Shown: positions 12,830 through 37,405, counted from the stretch's first letter. The stretch is 64,000 nt of DNA from Chloroflexota bacterium (GCA_037447125.1 JBBIHG010000003.1:8493-72492); one strand, 5' to 3'. Program-made: numbers and translations. The notes: a model not told the origin generated them from the sequence alone.

Positions 12830-12858
12830 GCATAAGCCTCCTATGCGTGCAGGAGAGT

Positions 12859-20614: not shown

Positions 20615-20734
20615 CTGCTTTCGCATGAACATCTGGCAAACGTCCGCCTTTGGCAGATCCAAACTTCGGCAGAAAGTCGTATATTCTGGTATGTTCTGGT
20701 ATCGCATTCGTTGCAGCTTCATGGAGGACACAAA

Positions 20735-21247
20735 ATGCGCAACTTGCGTCTGGTCATGCTTGCGTTGATGGTGCTGGCCATCGCCAGCACAGCGGGCATC
20801 AGTGCGGCCTCAGGCCGGTCGTTCAAGGCCCACTTGTCGGCTGGCGAGGAAGTGCCGGCGAACGAGTCGCGAGGGCAGGGGCAGGCCAACTTCTGGCTGA
20901 GCAAGGACGGCACCGAGCTGCACTACCGGCTCATTGTCGCCAACATCGAAAACGTCGTCGCGTCTCACATTCACCTGGGTGCGGCGGGCGTGAACGGGCC
21001 GGTGGTCGCTTTCCTGTTTGGCCCGGCAGCGCCAGGGGGTGGCCGCTTCGCTGGCGTGCTCGCCGAGGGCACGATCACGGCGGCGAATCTGGTCGGTCCG
21101 CTGGCCGGGCAGCCGCTCAGCGCCCTGCTGGACGCCATCGCCGCTGGCAACACCTACGTGAACGTGCATACCAACGACGGAGTAGCGCCGGCTGGCACCG
21201 GCCCTGGTGACCTTCCCGCTGGCGAGATTCGCGGGCAGATCGGGTAG
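20735..21247 (+). CDS. Secreted CHRD-domain protein
   Basis: ATG at 20735 after GGAGGA. Signal peptide 'MRNLRLVMLALMVLAIASTAG'. 'HIHLGAAGVNGPVV' and 'YVNVHTN...PAGEIRGQI' are CHRD-type motifs. Confidence 0.75.
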   Translation: MRNLRLVMLALMVLAIASTAGISAASGRSFKAHLSAGEEVPANESRGQGQANFWLSKDGTELHYRLIVANIENVVASHIHLGAAGVNGPVVAFLFGPAAPGGGRFAGVLAEGTITAANLVGPLAGQPLSALLDAIAAGNTYVNVHTNDGVAPAGTGPGDLPAGEIRGQIG

Positions 21248-21302
21248 CCCACAGCCAGAGTCTCTCTTCCTGGCTTGCGCTCACTAGAACTCTCTCCACA
21301 CA

Positions 21303-21340
21303 CACGCCCCCACGTCGCGCGATGCGGGGGCGTCTTCTTG
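21303..21340 (+). terminator. Candidate intrinsic terminator after the CHRD gene
   Basis: ACGCCCCCA-cgtcgcgcga-TGCGGGGGCGT stem-loop followed by CTTCTT. Confidence 0.5.
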
Positions 21341-21408
21341 CCCAGACGCGCCACCCCCGCCACGCGGTATAATCGCCTCAGCGCCGACCATACCCCGACC
21401 GGAGACTG

Positions 21409-22446
21409 ATGACCCTGCACCCGCTCACCCCCGACCCCGCCGCCTGGGACGATTTCGTCGCGGCGCACCCGCGCGCACACCTCCTGCAACTGAGCGACTG
21501 GGGCGCGCTCAAGGCCGCCTTCGGCTGGACGCCCGTCCGCGTCGCCCTGGCTGACGGCGCGGGGACGCTCGTCGCCGGCGCGCAGATGTTGCTGCGCACG
21601 CTGCCGCTCCGCCTGGGGACACTCGCCTACATCCCCGCCGGGCCGCTGGTAGAGTGGGCGGACGCGGCACAGGTTCGCGCGCTGCTGGACGCGCTCGACG
21701 CCGAGGCGCGGCAGCGTGGGGCGATCCTGCTGAAGATCGAGCCAGGGCTGGGCCTGGACAACGCCGACTTCGCCCGGCTGGGCTTTCGCCCCAGCCCGCA
21801 GACGATCCAGCCGCCGCGCACCATCGTCCTCGACCTGAGCGGCGACGAGGAGGCGATCCTGGCCCGCATGAACCAGGGCACGCGCCGCAACATCCGCAAA
21901 AGCGCCCGCTTCGAGGTCGCCATCCGCCAGGGGACGCGCGCGGACGTGGCCCGCTTCAACGCGCTGCTGGCCGAGACGGGCGCGCGCGACGAATTCGGTG
22001 TGCACGCGCCCGACTACTATCAGCGCGCCTATGACCTCTTCGCCCCGGCGGGCCGCGCCGCGCTGATCCTGGGCAGCTATGGCGGGCAAGACCTGGCGGG
22101 CGTCATGGTCTTCCGGCTGGGCGAGTGGGCCTGGTACTTCTACGGCGCGTCGTCCGACCGCGAGCGGCAGCGCATGGCCTCCTACGGCGTGCAGTGGGCG
22201 GGCATCCAGTGGGCCAGGGCCGGCGGCGCGCGCTGCTACGACCTCTACGGCGTGCCCGACGCCGAGCCGGACGCCCTGGAAGCGCAGTTCGAGGCGCGCT
22301 CCGCCGGGCTGTGGGGCGTCTACCGCTTCAAGCGCGGCTGGGGCGGGCAGGTCGTGCGCGGCGCGGGAGCCTGGGACCGTGTCTACAGCCCGCCGCTCTA
22401 TGCGCTCTACCGGCTGGCCGTGCGCCTGCTGCGCCGCGCGGAGTAG
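21409..22446 (+). CDS. FemAB-family peptidoglycan interpeptide-bridge aminoacyltransferase (copy 1)
   Basis: 'HLLQLSDWGALK', 'MNQGTRRNIRKS', 'WYFYGASS...', 'WGVYRFKRGWGG' are typical of the FemX/FemAB (lipid II aminoacyltransferase) family. Confidence 0.8.
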   Translation: MTLHPLTPDPAAWDDFVAAHPRAHLLQLSDWGALKAAFGWTPVRVALADGAGTLVAGAQMLLRTLPLRLGTLAYIPAGPLVEWADAAQVRALLDALDAEARQRGAILLKIEPGLGLDNADFARLGFRPSPQTIQPPRTIVLDLSGDEEAILARMNQGTRRNIRKSARFEVAIRQGTRADVARFNALLAETGARDEFGVHAPDYYQRAYDLFAPAGRAALILGSYGGQDLAGVMVFRLGEWAWYFYGASSDRERQRMASYGVQWAGIQWARAGGARCYDLYGVPDAEPDALEAQFEARSAGLWGVYRFKRGWGGQVVRGAGAWDRVYSPPLYALYRLAVRLLRRAE

Positions 22447-22451
22447 TCCCC

Positions 22452-23570
22452 ATGCTGACCGTCACCCCGATCACCGACCGCGACGCCTGGCACGCCCTGC
22501 TGCGCCCGCTGCCCGCCGCGCACGTCTTGCAGACATGGGACTGGGGCGAGTTCAAGCGCGGCGAGACCGGCTGGTCGCCGGAGCGCCTGGCCTTCCGCGA
22601 CGAGTCCGGCGCGACGGTCGCCGCTGCCGCCGTGCTGACGCGGCGCGTCGGGCCGCTGCGCGTGATGTACGCGCCCAAAGGCCCGGCGCTGGACTGGCGC
22701 GACCCCGCCCTGGTGAGCGAAGTGCTGGCACATCTGGAGACGCTCGCCCGCCGACGCTGCGCCATCTGGCTGAAGATCGATCCGGACGCCATCGCCGGGA
22801 CGGGAGTGCCCGGCGGCGCTGACCCCGACCGCCCCCCGCGCGCCGACCTGGCGGGGCAGCGGGCGCTCGACTTGCTGCGGGCGCGCGGCTGGCGCTTCAG
22901 CGCGGCGCAGGTGCAGTTCCGCAACACGCTGACGCTCGACCTGGCGCAGAGCGAAGAGGCGCTGCTGGCGGGCATGAACCAGGGCACGCGCCGCAAAATC
23001 CGCCAGGCGAGCAAGGGGGGCGTCCGCGTGCGGCCCGCTGAGTCGCCCGGCGACTTCGAGACGCTCTACGCGCTCTACCGCGTCACCGGGCAGCGGCAGG
23101 GCTTCCTCATCCGCCCGCCGGACTATTACCGGGCGGCCTGGTCGCGCTTCATCGCGGCGGGGCTGGCGCAGGCGTTCCTGGCCGAGCACGAGGGGCGCGC
23201 CCTGGCCGGGCTGGTGCTGTTCCACTTCGGCCCCAAGGCGTGGTACTTCTATGGCATGAGTGGCAACGAGGGGCGCGAGCGGATGCCCACCTACCTGCTG
23301 CAATGGGAGGCAATCCGCTGGGCGCGGGCGCGCGGCTACGCGACCTACGACTTCTGGGGCGCGCCGGACGAATTCTGCGAGGACGCGCCGCTGTGGGGTG
23401 TCTACCGCTTCAAGGACGGCTTCGGCGGGACGGTGGTGCGGCACATCGGCGCGTGGGACTACGCGCCCTCGCGCGCGCTGTACGCGCTTTATGAGCGCGT
23501 CATGCCGCGCGTGCTGGGGGCGATGCGGCGGGGGAGAGGGGAGAAACGGCAGAGAGGGCCAGACTCATGA
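22452..23570 (+). CDS. FemAB-family aminoacyltransferase (copy 2, tandem paralog)
   Basis: ATG at 22452. 'HVLQTWDWGEFK', 'MNQGTRRKIRQA', 'WYFYGMSG', 'WGVYRFKDGFGG'. Confidence 0.8.
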   Translation: MLTVTPITDRDAWHALLRPLPAAHVLQTWDWGEFKRGETGWSPERLAFRDESGATVAAAAVLTRRVGPLRVMYAPKGPALDWRDPALVSEVLAHLETLARRRCAIWLKIDPDAIAGTGVPGGADPDRPPRADLAGQRALDLLRARGWRFSAAQVQFRNTLTLDLAQSEEALLAGMNQGTRRKIRQASKGGVRVRPAESPGDFETLYALYRVTGQRQGFLIRPPDYYRAAWSRFIAAGLAQAFLAEHEGRALAGLVLFHFGPKAWYFYGMSGNEGRERMPTYLLQWEAIRWARARGYATYDFWGAPDEFCEDAPLWGVYRFKDGFGGTVVRHIGAWDYAPSRALYALYERVMPRVLGAMRRGRGEKRQRGPDS

Positions 23571-23724
23571 TCAAGTTGCTGGACGACGTGGCTCTGCTGG
23601 AGGATTTGCCCGAACACGACCTACAACGCGGGCAGGTGAGGACGGTGGTGGAAGAACTCGCCCCCGGCATCTTTGAGGTGGAATTCAGCGACAGCGAAGG
23701 GCGCACCTACGCCCTGCTGGCCCG
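23567..23724 (+). pseudogene. DUF4926-like small gene, 3' end replaced by an IS terminus (read-through ORF continues to 23914)
   Basis: 'MIKLLDDVALLEDLPEHDLQRGQVRTVVEELAPGIFEVEFSDSEGRTYALLA' fits the DUF4926 pattern. The sequence switches to the 78-bp IS-end repeat at 23725. The ATGA start overlaps the femAB-2 stop. Confidence 0.55.
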
Positions 23725-23802
23725 TTTTTGTTCATCCCACGATCCTACCTCATCCACGCCTCCCTTTCCTGTCCGGTTGGAGATAATCTCACTTCACTAC
23801 CT
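23725..23802 (-). mobile_element. Isolated IS terminus (78 bp), inverted copy of the IS 5' end at 32436-32513
   Basis: The reverse complement matches 32436-32513 at 74/78 positions, including the transposase ATG region. Nothing IS-like lies to its left. Confidence 0.8.
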
Positions 23803-23977
23803 AACAGATGCCATCTCAATGTTTCTCACGCTGCTGTCCGCCCCTGAACCCATTGGCTGGCGAGGGGCCAGGGGTGAGGTAAACCGGCGAGCATCTGCCA
23901 TACGTCCAGTTTAGCAAGATACGCCAGTATCAGTAGGAGTCACGCCCAATGCTGCCAGCTCGGGCTGGCCCTGGGCC

Positions 23978-26344
23978 TCAGCAGGTAATTTCCGTGAAAT
24001 ACCGTCCCTTATGAGAGACTTCCGTAACGCCGCCGGCGATCTCAAACTCGCCTCTGCAGGCGATGTTGGTCGCGGAATTGCCGATGCACACTTCAACACG
24101 ACCCGGTTCAACTACGTAGCGCATGTCGCGATCGTAGAAGGCCAGCAGACTCACCGGCAGCTCAAAGGTGATAGTCCTACGCTGACCCGGAGCCAATGTG
24201 ATGCGCTGGAATCCCTTTAGCTCCTGCACCGGGCGCGTAATACTGGATACCAGATCGCGCACGTAAAGCTGCACGACTTCGTCTCCTGCGCGATCCCCAA
24301 CGTTGGTCACGTCCACCTGGATCATGACGGTGTCACTTGCACGCACGGTCTCGGGCGTGATGCGCAGATTGGCGATCTCGAAGCGGGTATAGCTCAGCCC
24401 GTAGCCGAATGGATACAGCGGGTGCACGCTGGTATCGACGTAATGCTCTTTCCAGTGCGAGCGATTACCGGAGGGTTTGTGGTTGTAGAACAGCGGGATC
24501 TGCCCGACATGGCGCGGAAAGGTCACCGGCAGCTTGCCGCCCGGATTGACGTCACCAAAGAGCACATCGGCGACGGCGTTAGCGCCCTCCTCTCCGGGCA
24601 GCCAGGCTTCCAGAATCGCCGGCACGTGCTCCGCTGCCCAGGTGATAGTCATCGGGCGCCCGTTGATCAGGACCAGCACCACAGGCGTGCCGGTCGCCGC
24701 CACAGCGCGCAGCAGATCGTCCTGCACGCCGGGCAGGTTCAGATTGGCGCGGTCACGCGCTTCCCCACACGTGCAGTCTTCCGTCAGTCCGGCCTTGTCG
24801 CCAAGCACCAGGATTGCCACATCGGCCGCCTGGGCGAGTGCAACTGCTTCAGCGAAGCCAGCGGTGGAGTCGCCCAGCACGTCACAGCCTCTGGTATAGC
24901 GTACATCAGCCGCGGGCACGGCAGCGCGGATCGCCTCCAAGACGCTGATCATGTCCACCGGACGATCCACGACCTGGACTTCATGATCCGGCGTGGCGGT
25001 GTTGAACACGGCAAGGGTCTGGGCTTCGCGCAGAGTCTCGGTGTGGGCGGGATAGGAGTAGTCACCCATCAGGTTCCGCACCGAGTCTGCATTGGGGCCG
25101 ATCACGGCGATGCGCGCTGTCTGTTTGCACAGCGGCAGCAGGCCAGCTTCGTTCTTGAGCAGGACCATGCTCTTGCGGGCGACTTCGCGGGCCAGCGCGC
25201 GCTGCGCCGGCGTATCAAAAACCTCGATGACACGCTGCTCGTCAACATAGGGCTGCTCAAACAGACCCAGCCGGAACTTGAACGCCAGCACGCGCGACAC
25301 CGCCGCATCCACGAGCGCGATATCGATCTGCCCGCTCTCCAACCCGGCCTTCAACGGACTGCCGAAACAATCGGTGCTGGGCAGTTCGACCTCAATGCCG
25401 GCTTGCAGGGCCAACGCTGCCGCTTCAGTCTTGCCAGCGACGACGCGATGGTAGCCGGCGAGCATGTCCACCGTGAAGTAGTCTGACACAATCAGCCCGT
25501 CAAAACCGAGCTGCTCACGCAGCAGTGAGCGAAGCAGGGTGACCGAGCCGCCGCATGGCACTCCGTCCATCTCGTGATAGGCGTTCATGATCGACGCCAG
25601 GCCCGCTTCGCGTATGGCCGCCTCGAAGGGGCGCACGAAGACCTCGCGCAGCTCGCGATCCGGCAGGGATACCGGGGCCCAGTTGCGCCCGCCTTCGCTC
25701 ATGCCGTGGCCCACGAAGTGCTTGGCGGTGGCGACGATCCCTTCGGCCCATGACGGGCCCTGCAGCCCCTGGATGAAGGCTGAGCCAAGCCTTCCTGCCA
25801 GGTAGGGGTCCTCGCCGAAGGTCTCCTCGATGCGTCCCCACCGCGGATCGCGGGTGATGTCCAGCACGGGAGCCAGCGCCTGGTGACCGCCGACGGCGCG
25901 CATCTGCGTGCGGATCACTTCGCCCATCGCCTCCGTGATCGCTACGTCCCAGGTGCTCGCCACCCCAATCGCCTGCGGGAAGACGGTCGCCCCCTGGGCC
26001 ATGTAGCCACTGCAGCATTCTTCATGCACTATTGCCGGAATGCCCAGGCGTGTGCGCGTGACCAGAAACCGTTGGGCCGCATTGGCGACGGCTGCGCTTT
26101 GGGCTGGAGGCAGGTTGGTTGACCCGCCGATACGCGTGATCTGCCCAATGCCATACTTCAGCCGGGCTTGGGCGCGCGTTTCTGAGAAGTCCATACCTTC
26201 CAGCACTTCAAAAGCCCAGGCACTGCCCAGCTGAGCGAGTTTCTCGTCCACCGTCATCTGCGCCAACAGGTCGCGGACTCGCGCATCGATGGACTGAGAC
26301 GCATCGCGGTAGAGGCCGCGGGTTGCGGTTCGGGTGTCTGCCAT
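23978..26344 (-). CDS. Glycoside hydrolase family 3 (beta-glucosidase/beta-xylosidase type)
   Basis: ATG at 26344 (MADTRTA). 'MTVDEKLAQL', 'GIPAIVHEE', 'ITRDPRWGRIEETFGEDPYL', 'LIVSDY' (nucleophile Asp region), C-terminal FnIII-like domain. Confidence 0.88.
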   Translation of the reverse strand: MADTRTATRGLYRDASQSIDARVRDLLAQMTVDEKLAQLGSAWAFEVLEGMDFSETRAQARLKYGIGQITRIGGSTNLPPAQSAAVANAAQRFLVTRTRLGIPAIVHEECCSGYMAQGATVFPQAIGVASTWDVAITEAMGEVIRTQMRAVGGHQALAPVLDITRDPRWGRIEETFGEDPYLAGRLGSAFIQGLQGPSWAEGIVATAKHFVGHGMSEGGRNWAPVSLPDRELREVFVRPFEAAIREAGLASIMNAYHEMDGVPCGGSVTLLRSLLREQLGFDGLIVSDYFTVDMLAGYHRVVAGKTEAAALALQAGIEVELPSTDCFGSPLKAGLESGQIDIALVDAAVSRVLAFKFRLGLFEQPYVDEQRVIEVFDTPAQRALAREVARKSMVLLKNEAGLLPLCKQTARIAVIGPNADSVRNLMGDYSYPAHTETLREAQTLAVFNTATPDHEVQVVDRPVDMISVLEAIRAAVPAADVRYTRGCDVLGDSTAGFAEAVALAQAADVAILVLGDKAGLTEDCTCGEARDRANLNLPGVQDDLLRAVAATGTPVVLVLINGRPMTITWAAEHVPAILEAWLPGEEGANAVADVLFGDVNPGGKLPVTFPRHVGQIPLFYNHKPSGNRSHWKEHYVDTSVHPLYPFGYGLSYTRFEIANLRITPETVRASDTVMIQVDVTNVGDRAGDEVVQLYVRDLVSSITRPVQELKGFQRITLAPGQRRTITFELPVSLLAFYDRDMRYVVEPGRVEVCIGNSATNIACRGEFEIAGGVTEVSHKGRYFTEITC

Positions 26345-26469
26345 CCAAAAGACTCCTGCTGAAAATCGGCCACTCAAAGAACGGCGTGCTGCAAACCGGG
26401 CAAGCGCCGGACCACCAACAAGTCGTGCAGGGCGCTTGACATTGGTCAGGAGTCATTATAGACTGATTT

Positions 26470-26483
26470 TGATAACGTTTGCA
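26470..26483. promoter_or_regulatory. Candidate LacI-family operator TGATAACGTTTGCA
   Basis: Near-palindrome of the TGnAAACGnTTnCA type, 126 nt upstream of the GH3 start. Its reverse complement matches the 26611 site at 13/14 positions. Confidence 0.5.
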
Positions 26484-26610
26484 ATAGGGTTGCCTGGAAA
26501 CAGCGCGATTCTGTCCGCAGGGCCTGCCGTAAGGCCGGGTCTTCGGGCGAAGACCAAGAGCAGAGGGCGGGCCGGCGGTCTGAATAGGCGACGTCTCTTG
26601 GGGGCGATTC

Positions 26611-26624
26611 TGCAAACGTTGTCA
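26611..26624. promoter_or_regulatory. Candidate LacI-family operator TGCAAACGTTGTCA
   Basis: Lies 6 nt upstream of the lacI-family ATG. Partner site at 26470. Confidence 0.5.
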
Positions 26625-26629
26625 AAGAG

Positions 26630-27673
26630 ATGCCTGCTGTGAACAACGACAAGAAGCTCCCCAGTATCACCATTGTGGATGTCGCCCGCGAGGCCGGCGT
26701 GTCGTACTCGACTGTCTCACGCGTTGTGAACAACTACGAGTACGTCAAGCCCGAAACCCGCGAGAAGGTCCTCAATGCCACGATGCGTCTGGGGTACGTC
26801 GTGAATCAGCCGGCGCGCAGTCTGCGCGGGGGACGCTCGCAAGTCGTCGGGCTGCTGGTCCCCGATGTCGGCAACAGCTACATCGGGGCGATCATCCGGG
26901 GCATTGACGCCGAGCTCGCCGCCAACCAGTACGACCTCATGCTCTACACCACTCACCGGCAGAAGACCCGTGAATCGACCTACGTCGCGACGATCACCCG
27001 CGGGCTGGCCGATGGTCTGCTCCTGCTGCTGCCGACAAATGTGGAAGCCTATCTGGCCACGCTCCAGCAGCGGCAGTTCCCGCATGTGCTGATCGATTAC
27101 CAGCATGTCGCGAACGACCTGACTTCGACGGTGCAGGCGACCAACTGGCAGGGAGCCTATGAGGCGACCCGCTATTTGATCGCGCTGGGTCACCGACGGA
27201 TCGCCTACATCATTGGGCTGAAAGAGATGCAGTGTGCGCTGGACCGGCTGCAGGGGTACGGTGACGCACTTGCCGCGCACGGCATCCCCTACGATCCGGA
27301 ACTGGTTTATCCCGGCGACTTCTTCCGCCCGCAGGGGTATGAAGCCGCCCAAAGGTTCCTGGCTTTGCCCCGGCCTCCCACCGCTGTGTTCGCCGCGAAT
27401 GACAGCTCCGCGTTTGGTGTGATGGAGGCGGTGACTCGTCTGGGACTGCGTGTGCCAGACGACGTGTCGGTGATCGGGTTTGACGACACCATCGAGGCCC
27501 AGCAGGTCCATCCCGGGCTGACCACCGTGCGCCAGCCACTCGAAGAGATGGGGCGGGTGGCGGCGCGGATTCTGCTCAGACGGCTGGACAATCCTGATCT
27601 ACCGGGGGAGCGCGTTGAGCTCCCGACCACACTGGTCGAGCGCGACTCGTGTAGGCCACCTCGTCCCCAATAG
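26630..27673 (+). CDS. LacI-family transcriptional regulator
   Basis: HTH 'TIVDVAREAGVSYSTVSRVVNN' followed by a periplasmic-binding-fold sugar sensor domain. Confidence 0.9.
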   Translation: MPAVNNDKKLPSITIVDVAREAGVSYSTVSRVVNNYEYVKPETREKVLNATMRLGYVVNQPARSLRGGRSQVVGLLVPDVGNSYIGAIIRGIDAELAANQYDLMLYTTHRQKTRESTYVATITRGLADGLLLLLPTNVEAYLATLQQRQFPHVLIDYQHVANDLTSTVQATNWQGAYEATRYLIALGHRRIAYIIGLKEMQCALDRLQGYGDALAAHGIPYDPELVYPGDFFRPQGYEAAQRFLALPRPPTAVFAANDSSAFGVMEAVTRLGLRVPDDVSVIGFDDTIEAQQVHPGLTTVRQPLEEMGRVAARILLRRLDNPDLPGERVELPTTLVERDSCRPPRPQ

Positions 27674-27750
27674 CGCGTTTTTTGTGTGTACGGCTCTGGC
27701 GCAATCAGGCCGGAGCATAAAGACCCAAGTAGCTATCCAAGGAGAATATC

Positions 27751-29028
27751 ATGAGAGTCTTGCGCAGTGTTCTGGTTCTGGCCCTGGTGTTGGGCGTAGT
27801 GGGCGGCATGGCGGGCCTCAAGCCCACTGCCGCGCAGTCCACCGTCACCATCAACTGGTGGCATATTCAGGAGGCGTTGCAAGGTGGCGATTTCTGGGCT
27901 GAGGTGGCGGCTGAGTACGAAGCCTTGCACCCCAATGTCAACATCGAGATCACTTTCCTGGAGAACGAGGCGTTCAAGAGCCAGATCGTGACCGTGATGC
28001 AGGCCGAACAACCCCCGGATCTGTTCCAGAGCTGGGGCGGCGGCGTGCTGTGGAACTATGCGAATGCCGGCCTGGTGCGCGACATTTCCGCCGAACTGAA
28101 GGGCGAATGGTACGACTCATTCGCGATGCCTGCCGCGGTTGAGATGTTCGGGCAGAATGGCGAATACTACGGCGTCCCCTGGGACTGGGGTGCGGTTGGC
28201 TTCTTCTACAACAAGGCCCTGTTCGCGCAGGCGGGCCTCGATCCCGAGAATCCCCCCACCACCTGGACGGACTTCCTCGACGCAGTGCGGGCCCTGAAGG
28301 ATTCCGGCACCATCCCGATCGCGCTGGGTGAAGGCGACCGGTGGCCGGGCCACTTCTGGTTTGTCTATCTGGCGCTCCGTATTGGCGGCGCTGAGGCATT
28401 CCTGAACGCCTACAACCGTGAAGGGTCGTTCGCTGATGAGGCGTTTGTTCAGGCAGGCGAAAGGCTGGCGGAACTGGCCGCCCTGCAGCCCTTCCAAGAG
28501 GGGTTCATGGGCATGGGCTACGGGGACCAGGCCCGTCTGGTCGGCGATGGCCTGGCCGCCATGGAGCTGATGGGACAGTGGGCGCCCGGCGCGCAGGTTA
28601 GCAACAGCGAGCAGGGTGGCATCGGCGAGGATCTGGGCTTCTTCCCCTTCCCAATGGTTGAAGGCGGAGTGGGCGATCCGACCGACATCCTGGGTGGTGG
28701 CAATGGGTTTGTCGTCGGCAAGAACGCGCCAGATGAGACCATTGACTTCCTGAAGTACCTCACCAGCGAAGGGGTTCAGGAGCGCACGTTCTTCGCCATT
28801 CCGGTGGTCGCCGCCGCGACAGATGTCCTGGCTGATGATCCGATCTTGACCAAGATCCTCGAGATGCGCGACAACGCGAACTACGCCCAGTTGTACTACG
28901 ATCAGTTCTTGCCCCCGTCGGTTGCCCAGGCGGTGCTCGACGCAGTGCAGGGTCTATTGGCTGGCGAGCTTTCGCCTGAAGAGGCCGCTATGTATATTGA
29001 GGATGAAGCCTCGCTTGCGCTTGACTGA
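27751..29028 (+). CDS. ABC transporter extracellular sugar-binding protein (family 1)
   Basis: Signal/anchor 'MRVLRSVLVLALVLGVVGG' with an AAGGAG RBS. Typical SBP_bac_1 layout ahead of two permease genes. Confidence 0.85.
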   Translation: MRVLRSVLVLALVLGVVGGMAGLKPTAAQSTVTINWWHIQEALQGGDFWAEVAAEYEALHPNVNIEITFLENEAFKSQIVTVMQAEQPPDLFQSWGGGVLWNYANAGLVRDISAELKGEWYDSFAMPAAVEMFGQNGEYYGVPWDWGAVGFFYNKALFAQAGLDPENPPTTWTDFLDAVRALKDSGTIPIALGEGDRWPGHFWFVYLALRIGGAEAFLNAYNREGSFADEAFVQAGERLAELAALQPFQEGFMGMGYGDQARLVGDGLAAMELMGQWAPGAQVSNSEQGGIGEDLGFFPFPMVEGGVGDPTDILGGGNGFVVGKNAPDETIDFLKYLTSEGVQERTFFAIPVVAAATDVLADDPILTKILEMRDNANYAQLYYDQFLPPSVAQAVLDAVQGLLAGELSPEEAAMYIEDEASLALD

Positions 29029-29140
29029 GCGATAAGGCCCGAAGGTGTGGGGCTGCCGTCCGTCCACCAGCGGCTGCCCCCACGCCTTCTATTCAGCAGA
29101 TGCTCAACACGTTCGTGACAGCCGTATAAGGGATGCCGCT

Positions 29141-30118
29141 ATGTCTGCCAAAACCAATACGCTGCTACGAGGTTGGGTTGCTGCGCAGTGTGAGCGTGCG
29201 CGTCGAAATCTCGATAAGCTGATCCTGATCCCCCTCTTTGTGCTGCCGGGGATGATTCTGTTCTTCACTTTTGTGTTGATGCCGGTGGCGCAGTCGGCCC
29301 GCTACAGCCTGTACGAGTGGGATGGTTTTGGCACACCCAGCAACTTTGCGGAACTCAGGGGCGACGATCAGATCCCGCTGGGGAACTACGAGAAGCTGTT
29401 CAATCACGGGGACTTTCGCACGGCCCTCCGTAACAGCTCGCTGCTGATGCTGCTCTCGTTGGCGGTCCAATTGCCGATCGCGCTGATCCTGGCTCTACTG
29501 GTCGGGCGAGGAGACCTGCCAGGCCGCACGTTCTTCCGGGGGCTGCTGTTCGTCCCCTATGTGTTCTCGGAGATTATCGCCGCGATCATCTGGCAGTACG
29601 TGCTGCGCGGCAACGCTGAGGGTCCAGCCAACCAGTTGTTCGCCTCCTTCATTCCTAACTTCGGGGCGGTCGATTGGCTCGGTGACAGGCAGTACGTGAT
29701 GTATGCCATCTTCGCCGTCCTCACCTGGAAGTACTTCGGCTTCTACATGATCCTGTATATGGCAGGTTTGCAGGGCGTGCCCAAAGACCTCGAAGAAGCC
29801 GGGCGCGTCGACGGGGCCAACTGGCTCCAGGTGCTGCGCTGGATCACCCTGCCGATGATGGGCAACACGTTGCGCCTGACAGTGTTCCTCTCGGTGCTGG
29901 GATCATTTCAGCAGTTCGTGGTCGTCCAGGTGCTGACCCGCGGCGGCAACCCGTTCAACGAGGGCCACGTGATCGCCACGTATCTTTTCAAGTTCGGGTT
30001 CAAACGCTTCGATATGGGCTATGGCAGTGCGGTGGCAGTGGTGCTGTTTTTAATCTGTCTGGCCTTCTCTATCGGATACCAGCGCATGGTGATGCAGCGC
30101 GACTACCAGGATCTGTAG
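29141..30118 (+). CDS. Carbohydrate ABC transporter permease (MalF/UgpA type)
   Basis: ATG at 29141. EAA loop 'EEAGRVDGANWLQVLRWITLP'. Confidence 0.85.
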   Translation: MSAKTNTLLRGWVAAQCERARRNLDKLILIPLFVLPGMILFFTFVLMPVAQSARYSLYEWDGFGTPSNFAELRGDDQIPLGNYEKLFNHGDFRTALRNSSLLMLLSLAVQLPIALILALLVGRGDLPGRTFFRGLLFVPYVFSEIIAAIIWQYVLRGNAEGPANQLFASFIPNFGAVDWLGDRQYVMYAIFAVLTWKYFGFYMILYMAGLQGVPKDLEEAGRVDGANWLQVLRWITLPMMGNTLRLTVFLSVLGSFQQFVVVQVLTRGGNPFNEGHVIATYLFKFGFKRFDMGYGSAVAVVLFLICLAFSIGYQRMVMQRDYQDL

Positions 30119-30140
30119 CGGTTCCATAGAGGGAAACTCG

Positions 30141-31022
30141 ATGCAAACTACCTATCCAGCGCCCGCCACTCCCACACGGCGGCCGATCCGTTGGGACCGA
30201 GCGAGTTCGATCGCGCTGAAGTACGCCGTCCTGATCGCGCTGAGCATCGTGGTCACTATGCCGGTCGCGACGGCGGTGTTGGGGGGGATGCGGACCAACG
30301 GCGAATTTCTGGCCCGTCCCATCGATCTGCCGCGGCAGGGCATCCAGTGGGAAAACTACACCAGCATTCTCGAAGACGGCAAGTTCTGGCGGGCCGCCAA
30401 AAACAGCGTAGTGATTACGGTTGGCGTTGCCAGCATCAACATCACCCTCGCCAGCATGCTGGCCTTTGCCCTCAGCCGCGTGAAGTTCGCTGGGCGCAGC
30501 CTGTTGTTCAATATCATCTCGTTTGGTCTGTTGTTCCCGCTGGTCGTGGCGATCCTGCCCCTGTTCATCCAACTGCGCGCGCTGGGCCTGCTGAACTCGG
30601 TGTGGGGGATCATTCTGCCGATGGCTGCGTTCGGGCTGCCGAGCAGTGTGGTGATTCTGCGCGGCTTCTTCATGGCGATTCCCAAAGAACTCGAAGACGC
30701 CGCTTACATCGACGGGGCCACAGTCTTTGGGTTCTTCTTCTATATCCTGCTGCCAATCTCGCGACCGGCCCTGTCGGCGGTGATGACTATCAATATTGTG
30801 GCGGCGTGGAACGAGTACTTTCTGCCCCTGCTGGTGGTTGGGCCGTCTGAGGAGGCGTGGCCGCTGCCGCTGGGCATCATGCAGTTCCAGGGACAATACG
30901 GCACCGACTGGGCACGTGTGATGGCCTACGTCACCATCCTGATCATTCCGGCTGTGGTGTTCTACCTCTTCACCGAAAAGCTGATTGTCACCGGGCTGAC
31001 CGGCGGCGAGCTGAAAGGCTGA
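30141..31022 (+). CDS. Carbohydrate ABC transporter permease (MalG/UgpE type)
   Basis: EAA loop 'EDAAYIDGATVFGFFFYILLP'; six predicted TM segments. Confidence 0.85.
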   Translation: MQTTYPAPATPTRRPIRWDRASSIALKYAVLIALSIVVTMPVATAVLGGMRTNGEFLARPIDLPRQGIQWENYTSILEDGKFWRAAKNSVVITVGVASINITLASMLAFALSRVKFAGRSLLFNIISFGLLFPLVVAILPLFIQLRALGLLNSVWGIILPMAAFGLPSSVVILRGFFMAIPKELEDAAYIDGATVFGFFFYILLPISRPALSAVMTINIVAAWNEYFLPLLVVGPSEEAWPLPLGIMQFQGQYGTDWARVMAYVTILIIPAVVFYLFTEKLIVTGLTGGELKG

Positions 31023-31130
31023 GCGCGGTTTCGCACATCCCTGCCCGGTGAGCGCTGGCAGATGGGCCCGCTGGCCCGGTGCAGTTGGCCACTTTGGGAT
31101 ATCCTCACTACTCTAGGGAGAGCCACGATC

Positions 31131-32393
31131 ATGCGCAAACCTCTCAACGTCGTCTTGCTTGGCACGCTGATCGGTGTGCTGGCCGCTGCCGCGCTGCCTG
31201 CCCGAGCGCAGGGTGAGCATCGTCCCGCCCCTGTGCCACCGGACACCGGCGCGTTCTTCACTGGCGAATACCGCAATATGCTCGCAGAATGGGGCCTGAG
31301 TGAGGGTGAGATTCAGTCGCGCATTGAGGCCGTGTGGAACCAGCTCTTTTACGGTGATGAGCACACCGAGCGCGTGTATTACCCGGTCGGCGACGACATG
31401 GCCTATATCCTCGATACGGGACATGGCGACGTGCGCACCGAGGGCCAGTCCTACGGGATGATGATCGCGGTGCAGCTCGACAAGCAGGACGAGTTCAACC
31501 GCATCTGGAAGTGGACCAAGACGTACATGTATAACACTAGCGGGGCGTACCGGGGCTATTTCGCGTGGCACTGCAGGCCCGATGGCTCAAAGATCAACGA
31601 CAATCCCGCCTCAGATGGCGAACAGTGGTTTGTGATGGCGTTGTTCTTTGCCGCCGGGCGCTGGGGCAATGGCGAGGGTATCTTCAACTATGAGGCGGAA
31701 GCGAACGCGATCCTGTATACCATGCTGCACACCGCCGACGATCCACTGGCCATGGCGACCAATATGTTCGACGCCGAGACCAAACAGGTCGTGTTTGTGC
31801 CGTCCAAGAACCGTGATGGGCGCTTCACCAATCCTTCGTATCACCTGCCGCACTATTATGAGCTGTGGGCGCGGTGGGCTGCGCAAGATAACGCCTTCTG
31901 GCCCGCCGCCGCCGCCGCCAGCCGGGCCTTCTGGCGCAGGACGGCGCATCCGGAAACCGGACTGATGCCCAACTACGCGACCTTTGACGGCGCGCCGCAG
32001 TATTCGGCAGATTACGGGCAGTTCTTCTATGCTGACTCGTGGCGCAACGGCATGAATGTTGCGGTAGATTATGCTTGGTTCGCCGCGGATCCCTGGCAGA
32101 TCGAGCAGAGCAACCGGCTGCAAGCGTTCTTTGCAGCGCAGGGCATCCAGACGTATTCGGACAAGTGGCGCATCGACGGCAGCGAGTCTCTCACGCCCTG
32201 GCATTCCGAAGGACTCGTCGCCACCAACGCCGCCGCGAGCCTCGCCGCCAGCGAGCCGGTAGCCTGGGATTTCATCGCAGAATTCTGGAACACGCCGCTG
32301 CCTACCGGTAAATGGCGCTATTACAGCGGGCTGTTGTATCTGCTGAGCCTGCTGCACCTGAGCGGCGAGTTCAGGATCTACGCACCCCAATGA
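31131..32393 (+). CDS. Secreted glycoside hydrolase family 8 (Rex-like exo-oligoxylanase type)
   Basis: ATG at 31131 with a signal peptide. 'DVRTEGQSYGMMIAVQ', 'GYFAWHCRPDG', 'PASDGEQWFVMALFFAAGRWG' match remembered GH8 blocks. Confidence 0.75.
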   Translation: MRKPLNVVLLGTLIGVLAAAALPARAQGEHRPAPVPPDTGAFFTGEYRNMLAEWGLSEGEIQSRIEAVWNQLFYGDEHTERVYYPVGDDMAYILDTGHGDVRTEGQSYGMMIAVQLDKQDEFNRIWKWTKTYMYNTSGAYRGYFAWHCRPDGSKINDNPASDGEQWFVMALFFAAGRWGNGEGIFNYEAEANAILYTMLHTADDPLAMATNMFDAETKQVVFVPSKNRDGRFTNPSYHLPHYYELWARWAAQDNAFWPAAAAASRAFWRRTAHPETGLMPNYATFDGAPQYSADYGQFFYADSWRNGMNVAVDYAWFAADPWQIEQSNRLQAFFAAQGIQTYSDKWRIDGSESLTPWHSEGLVATNAAASLAASEPVAWDFIAEFWNTPLPTGKWRYYSGLLYLLSLLHLSGEFRIYAPQ

Positions 32394-32435
32394 AAGCGGG
32401 CTTCGTCTGGCCTCACAACCGTCTCCTGCTTTGAC

Positions 32436-32753
32436 AGGTAGTGAAGTGAGATTATCTCCAACCGGACAGGAAAGGGAGGCGTGAATGAGGTAGGATTGTG
32501 GTATGAACACAAACACACCTACCACTACACGACCTCCGTTGGCAACTTTAGCATGTGTCAATCAGCGGTGCGAATGGTACGGGCAAGCAGGGCAGCACCA
32601 TCTGACCGTGCGCAAGACCTATGGAAAGGATGGGATTCGGTACTTGCGCTGTCGAGCGTGCGGGAGCGAGTTCAGTGAGCGAAAGAACACAGCGCTGTGG
32701 AACACCTCACGCCCAATACCTCCGCTATCGAGCGGCGCAATGGCACAGCGCGC
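32436..32753 (+). mobile_element. Degraded IS (IS1-family-like) 5' end with transposase fragments
   Basis: Terminus AGGTAGTGAAGTGAGATTATCTCC. ATG at 32503 encodes a zinc-ribbon N-terminus 'CVNQRCEWYGQAG...RYLRCRACGSEFSERKNT'. After a frame change only a short 'NTSAIERRNGTAR' block remains (32715-32753). Confidence 0.7.
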
Positions 32754-33041
32754 TACATCTTCGAGGAATGGTATCGCTTCCAGGGCAGCGATGTAGTGGT
32801 GTGCGGCAAGACGGGCACCGCCCAGACCGGCGGCGCAGGCACCAAGCCCCAGGCCTGGTTCGTGGCTTTTGCCCCCCAGGATGACCCCGAGATCGCGATT
32901 GTGGCGACGGTGGAGAACTCGTGCGAAGGGTCCGAGGTCGCCGCGCCAATTGTGCGCCGCATTGTCGAGGATTACTACGGGATGCTCCACTCCGAATGGC
33001 CGCCGCTGTGGGTGTCGGGCTGCATCCCGCTGGGCGAGTAG
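32754..33041 (+). pseudogene. C-terminal remnant of a class B penicillin-binding protein (transpeptidase)
   Basis: 'VVVCGKTGTAQ' (KTG motif) and 'AWFVAFAPQDDPEIAIVATVENSCEGSEVAAPIVRRI'. It is fused in frame to the transposase fragment. No N-terminal PBP sequence lies upstream. Confidence 0.75.
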
Positions 33042-33255
33042 GCGGTCTGGGCTGCTCGCTGCCGATCTCGATCTTCGCGTGCTGTCGTGCCGTGGGATGG
33101 TCGGCAGGGCGACATCTTGTTACGGTAATCTCTTGATATGGCCACGTTAGTCTCGTGAGCGTCCTGATCGACTCAGGCCCGATCATTTGTCGTGGCAGGT
33201 TTTCACAGGATTGTGTTCCGCAGGTCAGCTACGGGGAACGAGACAATCACGAAAG

Positions 33256-33283
33256 TTGCTGAATCGTTCATTTGTTCTATAAT
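33256..33283 (+). promoter_or_regulatory. Candidate sigma70-type promoter for the 33315 methylase
   Basis: TTGCTG, 16 nt spacer, then TATAAT (33278-33283), 32 nt upstream of the ATG. Confidence 0.45.
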
Positions 33284-33314
33284 CGAGTGTAATCAAGTCT
33301 AATCGGGGAAGCGC

Positions 33315-34619
33315 ATGATTGACTCAACGGCGACTTCTGCCGGCGCTAATCAGATTCAAGAGACAGACCGGGGGATACACGACTGGTATCGCTTCGTCCT
33401 GTCTTTTCCCCCCCATCTAGTCCGGCGTTATCTGGACGATTTTGATGCCAAATCTGGACAAACTGTTCTTGATCCATTCTGTGGTACAGGTACGACGCTC
33501 GTTGAAGCCCGCAAGCTAGGCTTCGCTTGCACTGGGATCGAAGCCAACCCAATGGCCTATTTTGCCTGTAAGGTGAAGACGCAGTGGAACATATCCCTGG
33601 AGGATTTCGAACAACACAGCCAGGAGATCGCCAGGCAAACTAGCGCCATCTTGAGCGCACATGGTTTTGACTACAGCGACCTGCCACTGTTCGCCAAGCC
33701 CGATACAACAGCGAGCAATCTTCGCCATCTGAGTCATGAACGAGCGGGACTGCTGCTGTCCGGTTCGATAAGCCCTCGCCCACTTCATCGTGCGCTGGTC
33801 TTGCTCGATCTGATCCGTGCCAGTGCAAAGCCCTGGTCATGTCATCAAGAACTGGCATTTGCGGCCACATTAGTCGCCGACGCAAGCAATCTGAAGTTCG
33901 GGCCAGAGGTTGGAGTCAACCGAAAGCCGAGGGAAGATGCTGACGTGGTGGGCTGTTGGATGGGGCGAGTGAGGCAAATGGCTGCCGATCTGCGTGCACT
34001 ACCTGACCGATCACACCGACCTGTAACTGTCTTTCATGGCGATGCACGGGATGCGTTCCCTTTCGAGAAAAACAGCGTTGACTTTGTGATCACTTCTCCT
34101 CCATATCCTAATGAGAAGGACTATACGCGCACTACTCGCCTGGAAAGTGTCGTGCTTGGCTTTATCAACTCACGACAAGAACTTCAGGCTGTCAAAAAGA
34201 AGCTGCTACGGAGTAACACACGGAACGTGTATGTTGACGATCAGGATGATCGCTGGGTACAGCAATTCGCATCTATTCGGCAACTAGCCGGTCAGATAGA
34301 AGCGAGGCGTTTGGAACTGGGCAAGACTTCGGGGTTTGAGAGGCTGTATCACCGTGTCGTACGCCTTTACTTTGGAGGGATGTATCGCCACCTTGAGGCC
34401 GTGAAGCATGTGCTCAGGCCTGGTGCGCTATGTGCCTATGTGGTGGGAGACCAGGAATCCTACTTTCGGATCACGATCCGAACCGGGCAACTACTCGCCG
34501 AAATCGCTGAGCATTGCGGATACAAGATTGAGCGCATCGATCTCTGGCGCACACGTCCGGCGACTGCAACAGGTTGTCAGATTCGCGAGGAGGTAGTTAT
34601 ATTGCGCTGGCTGGGTTGA
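33315..34619 (+). CDS. N4/N6 DNA methyltransferase (motif I before SPPY, long intervening region)
   Basis: 'VLDPFCGTGTTLVEARKLG' (AdoMet) and 'DFVITSPPYPNEKDY' (catalytic). Low GC (28/60 at 34081-34140). Confidence 0.8.
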   Translation: MIDSTATSAGANQIQETDRGIHDWYRFVLSFPPHLVRRYLDDFDAKSGQTVLDPFCGTGTTLVEARKLGFACTGIEANPMAYFACKVKTQWNISLEDFEQHSQEIARQTSAILSAHGFDYSDLPLFAKPDTTASNLRHLSHERAGLLLSGSISPRPLHRALVLLDLIRASAKPWSCHQELAFAATLVADASNLKFGPEVGVNRKPREDADVVGCWMGRVRQMAADLRALPDRSHRPVTVFHGDARDAFPFEKNSVDFVITSPPYPNEKDYTRTTRLESVVLGFINSRQELQAVKKKLLRSNTRNVYVDDQDDRWVQQFASIRQLAGQIEARRLELGKTSGFERLYHRVVRLYFGGMYRHLEAVKHVLRPGALCAYVVGDQESYFRITIRTGQLLAEIAEHCGYKIERIDLWRTRPATATGCQIREEVVILRWLG

Positions 34620-35390
34620 TCACGTGGCATCACGAAACAGCCGGTACCGTTTGTAAGAGCGCGTCTGGAGTTTGAGAGGATCAGAAGTCGCTGTGAATTC
34701 CACAAAGACCATTGACCCATCATCCAGCACCTTGACGCCTAAAGGGCGCACAGCTAGCCCAGGGTACTCCTGTTCAGCGTAGGCAACCATTGAGGATATC
34801 TGAACTCGATTGAGTTGATCTTTCAAACTCGCGGGCTTAGCTTCAATAGGTATACAGAACCATTGCCCATCTGTATTGACCCCAAGATAGAGATCGTCCA
34901 CTTCTATCTGCCCCATGTCTCGCACATAGGCCCTGAGATGGGATTGGAGATGGTATACGGTCAGGCTGGTGAAGATATCAACCAGGCGATTGTAGCGGAT
35001 CTGAACCAGCACACTTTGCTCGTCGCCTTTTGCGAACATGAGCACAATTTCGGGAATCGCATTGGGGATATCCGTGATCTCCAGTTCCAGGGGCACGGCA
35101 AGTTCCACAGGAATATCCAGCCTGACCAGGGTGTATTTCCCTTTGCCCTCGCCTCTGATGACCCAGTTTCCATGCCTCACCATTTCTGGCGGGAAGTCCC
35201 GCCTTCCAGAACGATAAGAATAGATAATATCGGGAATATTCTTGATATGTAACTCTTCTGCTATCTGATCAAGGAAACCCTTGTCAAAGGGTAATACCTC
35301 GGCTTCAAGGCCGTATTGCAGCGTCAGGCGTTTGAAGACTGCCAGAATCACTTCATCGTAACGTGAGAGACCTTCTACTTCATTTTCCAC
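34620..35390 (-). CDS. Putative PD-(D/E)XK type II restriction endonuclease, convergent with and abutting the methylase
   Basis: GTG at 35390 preceded by GGAGAGG. Candidate catalytic 'IEVDDLYLG...CIPIEAKP' (D...E-x-K). Its stop directly adjoins the methylase stop. The tracked N-terminal extension to 35651 covers a REP-B hairpin. Confidence 0.55.
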   Translation of the reverse strand: MENEVEGLSRYDEVILAVFKRLTLQYGLEAEVLPFDKGFLDQIAEELHIKNIPDIIYSYRSGRRDFPPEMVRHGNWVIRGEGKGKYTLVRLDIPVELAVPLELEITDIPNAIPEIVLMFAKGDEQSVLVQIRYNRLVDIFTSLTVYHLQSHLRAYVRDMGQIEVDDLYLGVNTDGQWFCIPIEAKPASLKDQLNRVQISSMVAYAEQEYPGLAVRPLGVKVLDDGSMVFVEFTATSDPLKLQTRSYKRYRLFRDAT

Positions 35391-35471
35391 AGGCAACCTC
35401 TCCTTGCACTCTCTGCAACCTCGGAGTATAGAGGCTGTTATGAACTTTGGCAGGCGGGTAGCTCCCGTGCT

Positions 35472-35574
35472 TGCCCCCCCATCCTCGGTCCTTCCCCCGC
35501 AAGGGGGGAAGGAAGAAGCCCGCCCTGGCCCCTTCCCTCCGCTTGCGTGGGGGAAGGGGTCGGGGGATGGGGGG
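35472..35574. repeat. REP-B double hairpin (CCTTCCCCCGCAAGGGGGGAAGG; CCCCTTCCCTCCGCTTGCGTGGGGGAAGGGG)
   Basis: Read directly. Same family as 9541, 45617 and 47680. Confidence 0.8.
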
Positions 35575-35779
35575 CGTCTACCCGGCAGAAGTGCATAACA
35601 CGCTCTAGGGCCTTTTGCCAACCAGTACCACTGCCATTCTTTTCGTATCATTCCGTCGTGACAGAAGTAACTATCCGCACCTTGCCCCTCATGTTATGCT
35701 GCATGGATTAGGCGTCTTTACAATTGTTAGGTACAGGTAAGCCATAGGACGCTCGCCATTGTTGTTGGGGAGAATTGCC

Positions 35780-37405
35780 TTGACCACGACCTCTGTGGAT
35801 GTGCTGGTCATCGGCGGCGGCGCGACCGGAGCCGCCGCCCTCTATGATCTGGCGCGGCGCGGCGTGCGCGCCCTGCTGGTAGACCAGCTCGACTTCACCA
35901 CTGGCACATCGGGGCGCTACCACGGCCTGCTCCATTCCGGCGGGCGCTACGCCGGGCATGACCTGGAGACCGCCCACGAGTGCATCGTCGAGAACCGGGT
36001 GCTGCGCCGCATCGTCCCCTTCGCCGTGGAGGACACGGGCGGGCTGTTCGTCGCCACGCCCGCCGACCCCGCCGATTTCCCCGCCCGCTGGCTGGACGGC
36101 TGCGCCAAAGCAGGCATTCCCACCGAGCCGCTGAGCGCGGCCCAGGCCCGCGCCGAAGAACCCGCGCTGACGCCGGCCATCACCGCCGTCTACCGCGTGC
36201 CGGATGGCTCGGTGGACTCCTTCGATATGATTCACGGCTTTGTCGAGGCGGCGCGCTCTCTAGGGAGCGACGCCTGGATCTACCAGCAGGTGACCGCGCT
36301 GCTGCGCGAAGGCGACGCCGTGGTCGGCGCGACGCTGCACGACACGCGCACCGGCGAGCAGCGCACAGTCCACGCCGCCTGTGTGCTCAACGCGACCGGC
36401 CCCTGGGCGGGAGTCGTGGCGCGGCTGGCCGGGCTGGAGGTGAGCGTCAAGTTCGACCGGGGCGCGATGGTCGCCATGAACACGCGCTGGGTCAACACCA
36501 TCGTCAACCGCCTGCGCCCTGCCTCCGACGGCGACATCCTGGTGCCGGTGGGCACGGTCTGCGTGCTGGGCACCACCTCCGTACACACCGCCTCACCCGA
36601 CGATTATCGCGTCGAAGCGTGGGAAGTCAGCAAGATTCTGGCCGAGGCCGATGTCGTCGTGCCGGGCATCCGCCACGGGCGGGCGCTGCGCGCCTGGGCG
36701 GGCGTGCGCCCACTCTACGAGCCGCCCCAGGCCGGCAACAACAAGGCGCAGGGCCGCGAGGTGGCGCGCACCTTCTCCGTGCTGGATCACGCCGCGCTGG
36801 ATGGCGTGCGCGGCCTGGTGACCGTCACCGGCGGCAAGCTGACCACCTGCCGCCTGATGGCCGAAAAAGCGGTGGACGCTGCCTGCGCGCAGCTTGGCAT
36901 CAGCGCGCCCTGCACCACCGCTGACGAAGTGCTGCCCATCCCTGCCGCCACAGCCGGGCGTTATCACCGCCTGGATCATCGCCTGCACAAGCTGGAGCAC
37001 GGCGAAATGCCCGGCGAATTGATCTGCGAGTGCGAGCTGGTCACCCGCCCGCAACTGGAAGCGGCCATCGCCGCCTACGGCGACCAGCCAGTCGCCCTGG
37101 ACGACCTGCGCCGCGATCTGCGCCTGGGCATGGGGCCGTGCCAGGCGGGTTTTTGCAGCGTGCGCGCGGCGGGCATTCTGCAGGCGGTCAAGGGCCAGGC
37201 CAGCGCCGAGGCGACGGCGGCCCTGAGCGCGTTCGTGGACGAGCGTTTTCGCGGCGTGCGGCCCCTGCTGTGGGGCCACCAACTGCGCCAGCTTTACCTC
37301 GACGAGCTGATCTACCGGCGCACGCTCGGCCTTGACCGGCTGCCCGGCGAAGGCGTCCCCCAGGCGACAGCCGCCACGCCGGACGAGGAGGCTGCCCATG
37401 GCTGA
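35780..37405 (+). CDS. glpA: Anaerobic glycerol-3-phosphate dehydrogenase subunit A
   Basis: FAD fold 'VDVLVIGGGATGAAALYDLARRG', 'GTSGRYHGLLHSGGRY', C-terminal BFD-like 'ICECELVT' Cys motif. The start is uncertain (TTG at 35780 or 35759). Confidence 0.85.
   Translation: MTTTSVDVLVIGGGATGAAALYDLARRGVRALLVDQLDFTTGTSGRYHGLLHSGGRYAGHDLETAHECIVENRVLRRIVPFAVEDTGGLFVATPADPADFPARWLDGCAKAGIPTEPLSAAQARAEEPALTPAITAVYRVPDGSVDSFDMIHGFVEAARSLGSDAWIYQQVTALLREGDAVVGATLHDTRTGEQRTVHAACVLNATGPWAGVVARLAGLEVSVKFDRGAMVAMNTRWVNTIVNRLRPASDGDILVPVGTVCVLGTTSVHTASPDDYRVEAWEVSKILAEADVVVPGIRHGRALRAWAGVRPLYEPPQAGNNKAQGREVARTFSVLDHAALDGVRGLVTVTGGKLTTCRLMAEKAVDAACAQLGISAPCTTADEVLPIPAATAGRYHRLDHRLHKLEHGEMPGELICECELVTRPQLEAAIAAYGDQPVALDDLRRDLRLGMGPCQAGFCSVRAAGILQAVKGQASAEATAALSAFVDERFRGVRPLLWGHQLRQLYLDELIYRRTLGLDRLPGEGVPQATAATPDEEAAHG

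Follow-up and report, generated by a model that had tools for sequence, protein, structure and literature searches.

How an intact operon for sugar use came to lie between two broken ends of an insertion sequence (IS) is the question raised by a 64,000-nucleotide (nt) stretch of DNA from a Chloroflexota bacterium (GCA_037447125.1, JBBIHG010000003.1:8493-72492), the whole of which is called the window here, with positions counted from its first letter. The original prediction had offered either a decayed composite transposon or IS-mediated capture and rearrangement. We found support for the IS-associated rearrangement, while a composite transposon was not established, the outer ends, a target duplication and a second instance all being absent. 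With a probability of roughly 0.55, the locus is the fossil of an IS-associated rearrangement in an Anaerolineae (Chloroflexota) genome, in which an IS-flanked operon was fixed by one or more deletions or rearrangements whose breakpoints lie within the IS copies. The two broken, inverted copies, both of the IS1 family, are an ordinary mobile-element scar around the intact operon, and neither a working transposon nor one of a new kind. The remnants and the sequences to which they are joined are as follows.

23567-23723, plus strand: DUF4926 gene without its 3' end (Pfam PF16277, E 6e-20, covering profile positions 1-48 of 57; aligned with the complete genes in the close relatives L013 and L039).
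23724-23801, minus strand: left IS1-family remnant, IS nt 1-78 only, with the left inverted repeat (IR), the leader and four codons (repeat search, alignment).
23802-23977, no strand: spacer from the IS terminus to the stop codon of the glycoside hydrolase family 3 (GH3) gene of the operon (repeat search, alignment with the operon contig L089).
32437-32752, plus strand: right IS1-family remnant, 316 nt of a non-autonomous derivative with an internal deletion (comparison with L001, L006 and L177).
32503-32796, plus strand: open reading frame (ORF) of 97 amino acids (aa), a transposase N-terminus with a CxxxxC...CxxC zinc ribbon, which goes out of frame past the internal deletion.
32753-33041, plus strand: 3' fragment of a PBP2 (mrdA-type) transpeptidase gene, the last ~96 codons (Pfam Transpeptidase, E 1e-12; TIGR03423, E 9e-18).

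The two remnants form the longest and best inverted repeat of the window. In a repeat search its arms ran from 23724 to 23802 and from 32436 to 32514 (79 nt, 95% complementary, with a gap of 8633 nt), and the runner-up pair reached 61 nt at 80%. Alignment with three copies from elsewhere placed the start of the element at GGTAGTG and the common A that precedes it in flanking DNA; the element-derived repeat is the reverse complement of 23724-23801 against 32437-32514, with 4 mismatches in 78 nt. The pair of 78-bp inverted IS termini, identical at 74 of 78 positions, was recovered as originally described, with the coordinates shifted to these values. The repeat consists of the left IR, the 5' leader and the first four transposase codons of an IS1-family element; that it reaches into the transposase gene had also been predicted correctly, and the homology of the two arms stops 12 nt past the ATG at 32503. 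Both termini face the cargo, again as predicted, with the two remnants keeping the same (left) end and their outer parts gone, and the inner junctions join operon flank to GGTAGTGAAGTG.

Within the window the terminus GGTAGTGAAGTGAG is confined to these two remnants, and the 23-mer terminus GGTAGTGAAGTGAGATTATCTCC, searched with up to 3 mismatches, gave exactly 2 sites there, both at the repeat arms, with no match in any of 100 shuffles. A search of the window for further IR-like sequence gave nothing convincing, the lone other match (60996-61015) carrying 3 mismatches. The pattern ATTATCTCCAACCGGACAGGAA had no exact match in 185,579 species-representative genomes and the 29-mer terminus had none in the JGI metagenomes; these exact scans of the two collections gave no intact close copy, no right end and no second composite. 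A check for a repeat scattered through the genome had been suggested with the original prediction, and in both collections the 78-nt end proved not to be common. The candidate explanation of a common non-IS repeat was rejected on the grounds that only two copies are present in 64 kb, that they contain the start of a transposase and that its homologues belong to the IS1 family.

This family assignment was made through the ORF that begins at 32503. It had 99 homologues at E <= 1e-3 among 5.8 billion proteins, some of them named IS1-family transposase by JGI. A protein search with the 69-aa N-terminus returned short ORFs only (<=121 aa), and an exhaustive HMMER search returned 382 representatives, full-length proteins of 354-371 aa included. 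Four of five full-length relatives scored 24.8-31.2 bits against Pfam DDE_Tnp_IS1 (PF03400), above its gathering score of 24.1 bits, and a conceptual translation of the relative L006 scored 26.5 bits. The best family for the full-length relatives was NCBIfam NF033558 (transpos_IS1), at 39-65 bits (E 8.5e-10 to 8e-18); these scores fall below the curated cut-off of 100 bits and thus point to a distant IS1-family lineage. Within the window ORF the zinc ribbon reads C18-x4-C23 ... C50-x2-C53, of which C50 and C53 are invariant in the aligned homologues and the first cysteine pair is kept in most, not all. The DDE region lies in neither window copy, the match to the IS1 models being that of the full-length relatives only, which measure ~1.19 kb and encode a single transposase of 364-371 aa. 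One of them, the 1188-bp Logan contig L177, appears to be exactly one complete element, with a single 371-aa ORF and IRs of ~20 bp that start with GGTAGT (GGTAGTTAGATGAGATTATC and GGTAGTTCCATGAGATTATC); the stop codon of its transposase sits inside the right IR. The window repeats are the ends of a distant, single-ORF IS1-family element, an undescribed lineage for which L177 is a useful reference.

The left remnant, whose terminus at 23801 faces the operon, differs from the right copy at 4 of 78 positions and from the copy on contig L001 at 3 of 78. At 23723/23724 its interior is fused to the interior of the DUF4926 gene. In agreement with the prediction that the left copy truncates this gene and keeps 78 nt only, 52 codons remain and ~17 are lost by comparison with L013 and L039, homology to which ends at 23723. 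On the operon side, the spacer holds an imperfect palindrome (23834-23874) resembling repetitive extragenic palindromic (REP) elements, and homology to the operon of L089 begins at 23954.

The right remnant runs from the left IR through the leader and the zinc-ribbon codons to a deletion junction at ~32706/32707, which is followed by codons for TPNTSAIERRNGTAR; it is without the last ~300 nt of the element, the right IR included. Compared with L006 and the complete L177, ~606 bp are deleted internally, so that ...ALWNT is fused to TPNTSAIERRN... (IERRN block at ~32727-32741) and the helix-turn-helix and DDE core are gone. L001, a contig of the NCBI assembly GCA_034433135.1, is 94.6% identical to the right copy over 316 nt and has the identical deletion junction (CTGTGGAACACC joined to TCACGCCCAATACC). 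The flanks of the two copies differ, that on the left of L001 being a Wzy_C/TPR gene at a different locus. As the same junction is present at different loci in two assemblies, the deletion predates the separation of the copies, and what spread was a non-autonomous derivative. The right copy had been described as eroded to a zinc ribbon and an IERRN block; this holds for its content, whereas erosion in place to that state was rejected, given the junction in common with L001. The truncation at 32752 is a separate matter and is in-situ erosion. L001 continues for at least 96 nt past the equivalent point, up to the limit set by its contig end, and the full-length proteins continue for ~95 residues beyond IERRN.

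The predicted fusion of the right copy to a fragment of a penicillin-binding protein gene was also borne out. The IERRN block is joined in frame to the C-terminal piece of PBP2, a stranded fragment of ~300 bp that ends at 33041 and has a core-like GC content at third codon positions (GC3) of 0.85. Over 32891-33053 it is 91% identical at the nt level to L097, a 1.4-kb contig of 0.93x coverage and the sole near relative in a metagenome search in which all other matches were at <=60% identity; beyond 33053 a different gene follows in L097. The native context of the fragment is weakly indicated. For annotation, the ORFs at 23567-23914, 32503-32796 and 32697-33041 should be treated as fusion artefacts of gene fragments and not as genes. 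Both outer junctions are illegitimate joins of an IS interior to a gene interior, and not transposition joints.

The synteny of related genomes bears on the position of the operon. A FemAB2 scan with one genome per GTDB species returned metagenome-assembled genomes (MAGs) of Anaerolineae and Aggregatilineales. In the closest relatives (L007, L008, L009, L013 and L039; about 89-91% nt identity) nuo, FemAB1 and FemAB2 are collinear with the window, at about 91% nt. Homology ends at ~23534 in the relatives that have no DUF4926 gene and at 23723 in the two that have one, L013 and L039. The FemAB2 region is followed by a conserved block of 9-10 kb (blockD) in L007, L008, L013, L039 and the more distant L014, which is absent from the entire 64-kb window, including the further 40 kb past the breakpoint; among the ORFs of this block in L013, Pfam recognised only Hypoth_Ymh and Response_reg. 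Since the block is conserved in the relatives, its adjacency to FemAB2 is ancestral and the arrangement in the window derived. The left IS-internal join is a lineage-specific, derived synteny breakpoint. Comparison with relatives had been proposed as a check, and close relatives do lack the 8.6-kb block at this position; a simple 8.6-kb insertion was nevertheless rejected, blockD being missing from the whole window.

The stretch between FemAB2 and the conserved block (locus ~11090-13000) differs in every one of L007, L008, L013 and L039. Among these four, the DUF4926 gene is present only in L013 and L039, and a Hypoth_Ymh gene in L013. Even where no IS is present, the position after FemAB2 appears to be a small hotspot of variation.

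On the right, DNA common to the closest related species resumes as follows.

33093-38483, no single strand: right backbone with a DNA methyltransferase gene (MTase), an ORF without family match, glpA and glpB (comparison with L095).

Contig L095, which like L007 comes from GCA_018056405.1, is 89.4-91.4% identical at the nt level over this segment, which sets the right limit of the window-specific DNA; upstream of its match to 33093 it holds only repeats similar to REP elements and miniature inverted-repeat transposable elements (MITEs), and then ends. The window-specific DNA (23724-33092) is a mosaic in which the operon, the IS pieces to its left and right and the orphan PBP2 fragment are put together through at least three illegitimate junctions.

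The gene content of the enclosed DNA is as first described, and its six genes are the following.

23978-26344, minus strand: GH3 beta-xylosidase/alpha-L-arabinosidase-like enzyme (Pfam Glyco_hydro_3 N- and C-terminal domains and an Fn3-like domain).
26630-27673, plus strand: LacI-family regulator (Pfam LacI and Peripla_BP_3).
27751-29028, plus strand: ABC transporter solute-binding protein (Pfam SBP_bac_1).
29141-30118, plus strand: ABC permease 1, 325 aa as called, with the ORF start at 29045 (Pfam BPD_transp_1).
30141-31022, plus strand: ABC permease 2 (Pfam BPD_transp_1).
31131-32393, plus strand: GH8 enzyme, predicted exo-oligoxylanase that releases xylose from the reducing end (Rex) (Pfam Glyco_hydro_8; PDB matches).

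All six ORFs are full length by comparison with their homologues, and the operon itself looks functional. The GH3 protein has 788 aa as called in a second assembly (L087, see below), its ORF extending to 26377, and its best NCBIfam model was that for beta-xylosidase/arabinosidase (NF052329), at 799 bits, below the cut-off of 1050. The GH8 protein matched the Rex enzymes Rex8A (6srd, E 5.8e-124) and B. halodurans BhRex (1wu4, E 1.6e-113) most closely in the PDB, as against an endo-xylanase (1h12, E 2e-48) and CelA (1cem, E 1.5e-21), and its homologues are named 'oligosaccharide reducing-end xylanase' by JGI. A xylo- or gluco-oligosaccharide cargo had been proposed; these matches support the former and not the latter. 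By analogy with the arabinoxylan-oligosaccharide clusters of Bifidobacterium, the operon probably takes up xylo-oligosaccharides, to be hydrolysed within the cell. The intermediate composition claimed for the enclosed DNA was found as well, the cargo having a GC content of 0.59-0.63 and a GC3 of 0.75-0.80, and the neighbouring core genes a GC3 of 0.85-0.92.

The same six-gene operon is found elsewhere in other surroundings. On the JGI contig L089 it is 87% identical at the nt level over 23954-32393 (GH8 93% at the aa level), with the same gene order and orientation, and its neighbours there are a glycosyltransferase gene and genes of the major facilitator superfamily (MFS) and haem biosynthesis; in L091 and L092 its surroundings are different again. 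On none of these three contigs does the operon have a gene called as an IS beside it, and blastn of the whole window against L089 gave no match to the IS remnants. A search for remnants of ancestral flank inside the IS ends, at 23802-23953 and 32394-32436, by alignment with the flanks in L089 gave nothing beyond the gene cluster. As to the assembly of the window, 13,978 nt that span all junctions (21131-35108) are 100% identical in a second public assembly, GCA_964399365.1 (L087). The Logan contig L088 corresponds to 23899-32465; it reaches exactly 30 nt (k-1) into the right IS end before it stops, which is the behaviour expected of an assembly at a repeat.

A true composite transposon would consist of two inverted IS1-family copies transposed by their outer (right) ends, from which two later deletions took the outer halves and adjacent host DNA. 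The remnants do keep the same IS end, inverted and facing the cargo, as in an inverted-repeat composite; the cargo is intact, at a derived position and unlike its flanks in composition, and the operon stands in different contexts among relatives. We consider such a transposon unlikely, however, since no outer end, right IR or target-site duplication is left, with no convincing IR-like sequence elsewhere in the window, since both outer junctions are IS-internal illegitimate joins, and since the right copy is a transposase-less derivative in a window that holds no intact transposase gene. The two copies, 4/78 apart, are moreover no closer to one another than either is to the copy of another genome (3-4/78), and a second IS-operon-IS unit was found neither in L089, L091 and L092 nor by the exact scans of the two collections. 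That a genuine IS1-family composite transposon moved the operon between Anaerolineae genomes, partly by means of the non-autonomous derivative mobilised in trans, is somewhat less likely again; if true, this would be a case in Chloroflexota of a carbohydrate-utilisation module spread by means of an IS. Duplicative inversion, which follows the Shapiro model (IS1 is known to form cointegrates), would begin with an IS beside the operon that attacks the far side, whereby the IS is duplicated in inverted orientation and 8.6 kb are flipped, the outer parts decaying later. Two inverted copies with the same end inward, new junctions and broken synteny would all follow from it, but the copies differ by 5% and one of them, a derivative, has no DDE core, and by itself the process leaves the loss of blockD, the truncated IS bodies and the orphan PBP2 fragment unexplained. 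The internal order and orientation of the operon are those of L089, although inversion of the whole segment would not alter them. We regard this explanation as distinctly improbable.

Least probable of all, and hardly to be expected, is an assembly artefact, a chimeric MAG contig misjoined at IS or REP repeats. The sequence does come from a metagenome-assembled genome, REP/MITE-like repeats are abundant in the region, and the Logan assembly has breaks at 23899 and, within the IS end, at 32465. A misjoin would leave a whole repeat between the wrong flanks, however, and not IS bodies cut internally and fused in frame; the 13,978 nt over all junctions are identical in L087, and the Logan contig independently runs from the operon across into the right IS end. 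Several observations do weigh against the rearrangement that we prefer. In the relatives the contigs run out before either blockD or the PBP2 gene can be linked to the MTase-glpA region, and how many events took place, and in which direction, cannot be reconstructed. The identity of the operon to that of L089 (87% nt) is only slightly under the core identity to sister species (88-91%), with which vertical inheritance and relocation would also agree. The operon of L089 is itself lower in GC3, at a weaker offset (0.79-0.83 against 0.81-0.88 in its own flanks), so that base composition gives only weak evidence of horizontal acquisition. The read sets behind the three assemblies may be the same or overlap, and the IS copies were counted within the 64-kb window.

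On the rearrangement reading, the operon would already have been flanked by IS copies beforehand, and another Anaerolineae lineage may have been its source. Through at least one deletion or rearrangement ending inside the two IS copies, their outer halves would then have been lost along with adjacent DNA, and the outcome would be an operon left between FemAB/DUF4926 and the MTase-glpA region. IS-associated relocation of the operon is supported and its horizontal acquisition is plausible. As no outer ends and no transposase remain, the structure cannot move now.

Outside annotation the find is of little importance. A rare IS1-family lineage of Anaerolineae, not described before, is documented by it, as is a deletion derivative of that lineage which has spread, and it places a xylo-oligosaccharide operon at a lineage-specific rearrangement junction, in line with accessory sugar loci that shift position among closely related uncultured Chloroflexota.

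Other features of the window were noted alongside. Next to the right junction, 33315-35651 holds a convergent low-GC pair (GC3 0.54-0.56) of the DNA methyltransferase gene and a 343-aa ORF without family match; the pair is common to the sister genome at 89% nt identity, with the partner called there as an ORF of 256 aa, and is probably a restriction-modification module. A G-rich REP/MITE-like element (...GGGGAAGGGGCTGGGGGATGGG...) at 35440-35605 is inserted relative to the sister contig L095, and related copies lie at 47660-47782 and 9556-9597, at L095:1-277 and at L089:5041-5168, between GH3 and LacI; REP/MITE-like repeats terminate several contigs of the relatives. The CHRD-domain ORF at 20650-21210 (region 20472-21354) is missing from all close relatives, which have a 68-bp gap there, and is edged by the dispersed repeat CTGAACCGCAGAGGCACAGAGGACGCAGAGGAG, with more copies near 42605-42706, 47901-48004, 49476-49541 and 56298-56396. 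The perfect 30-nt palindrome GTAGGGGCGGGTTTCGAAACCCGCCCCTAC occurs twice, at 8107-8136 and 40167-40196. An ORF on the minus strand (44016-45572) contains at least 7 repeats with a period of ~126 nt at 44031-44886, typical of a beta-propeller repeat protein, and tandem repeats lie inside ORFs at the two ends of the window (1-351 and 63490-63772, with periods of ~117 nt and ~81 nt).

Among known systems, the operon resembles the GH8 Rex clusters (B. halodurans Rex, Paenibacillus Rex8A, Bifidobacterium AXH) in combining LacI, a solute-binding protein, two permeases and exo-acting hydrolases. In the arabinoxylan-oligosaccharide clusters of Bifidobacterium, import is followed by intracellular hydrolysis (PMC7688211). 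Unlike those clusters, the window operon has GH3 and not GH43 or GH120 as the partner enzyme.

The right IS copy resembles a MITE or another non-autonomous derivative in its ~606-bp internal deletion with an identical junction at two unrelated loci; in contrast to a typical MITE, the derivative is estimated at >=580 bp, at the long end, and neither known copy is complete. IS1-based composites include Tn9, with direct IS1 copies, and Tn1681, with inverted IS1 copies. The window shares with Tn1681 the two inverted IS1-family copies around a cargo, and differs from both in that its two copies are truncated, in that the outer ends, the transposase and the target duplication are missing, and in that the unit is seen nowhere else. 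The element itself has one ORF of 364-371 aa in place of the insA/insB' frameshift pair of E. coli IS1, and is closest to the single-ORF type of IS1 elements, which ISfinder places in the ISMhu11-like subgroup. It shares with E. coli IS1 terminal IRs that start with GGTAGT/GGTAAT, and with the IS1 family at large a zinc ribbon at the N-terminus, then a helix-turn-helix and a DDE core, in which IERxN lies near the last catalytic residue.

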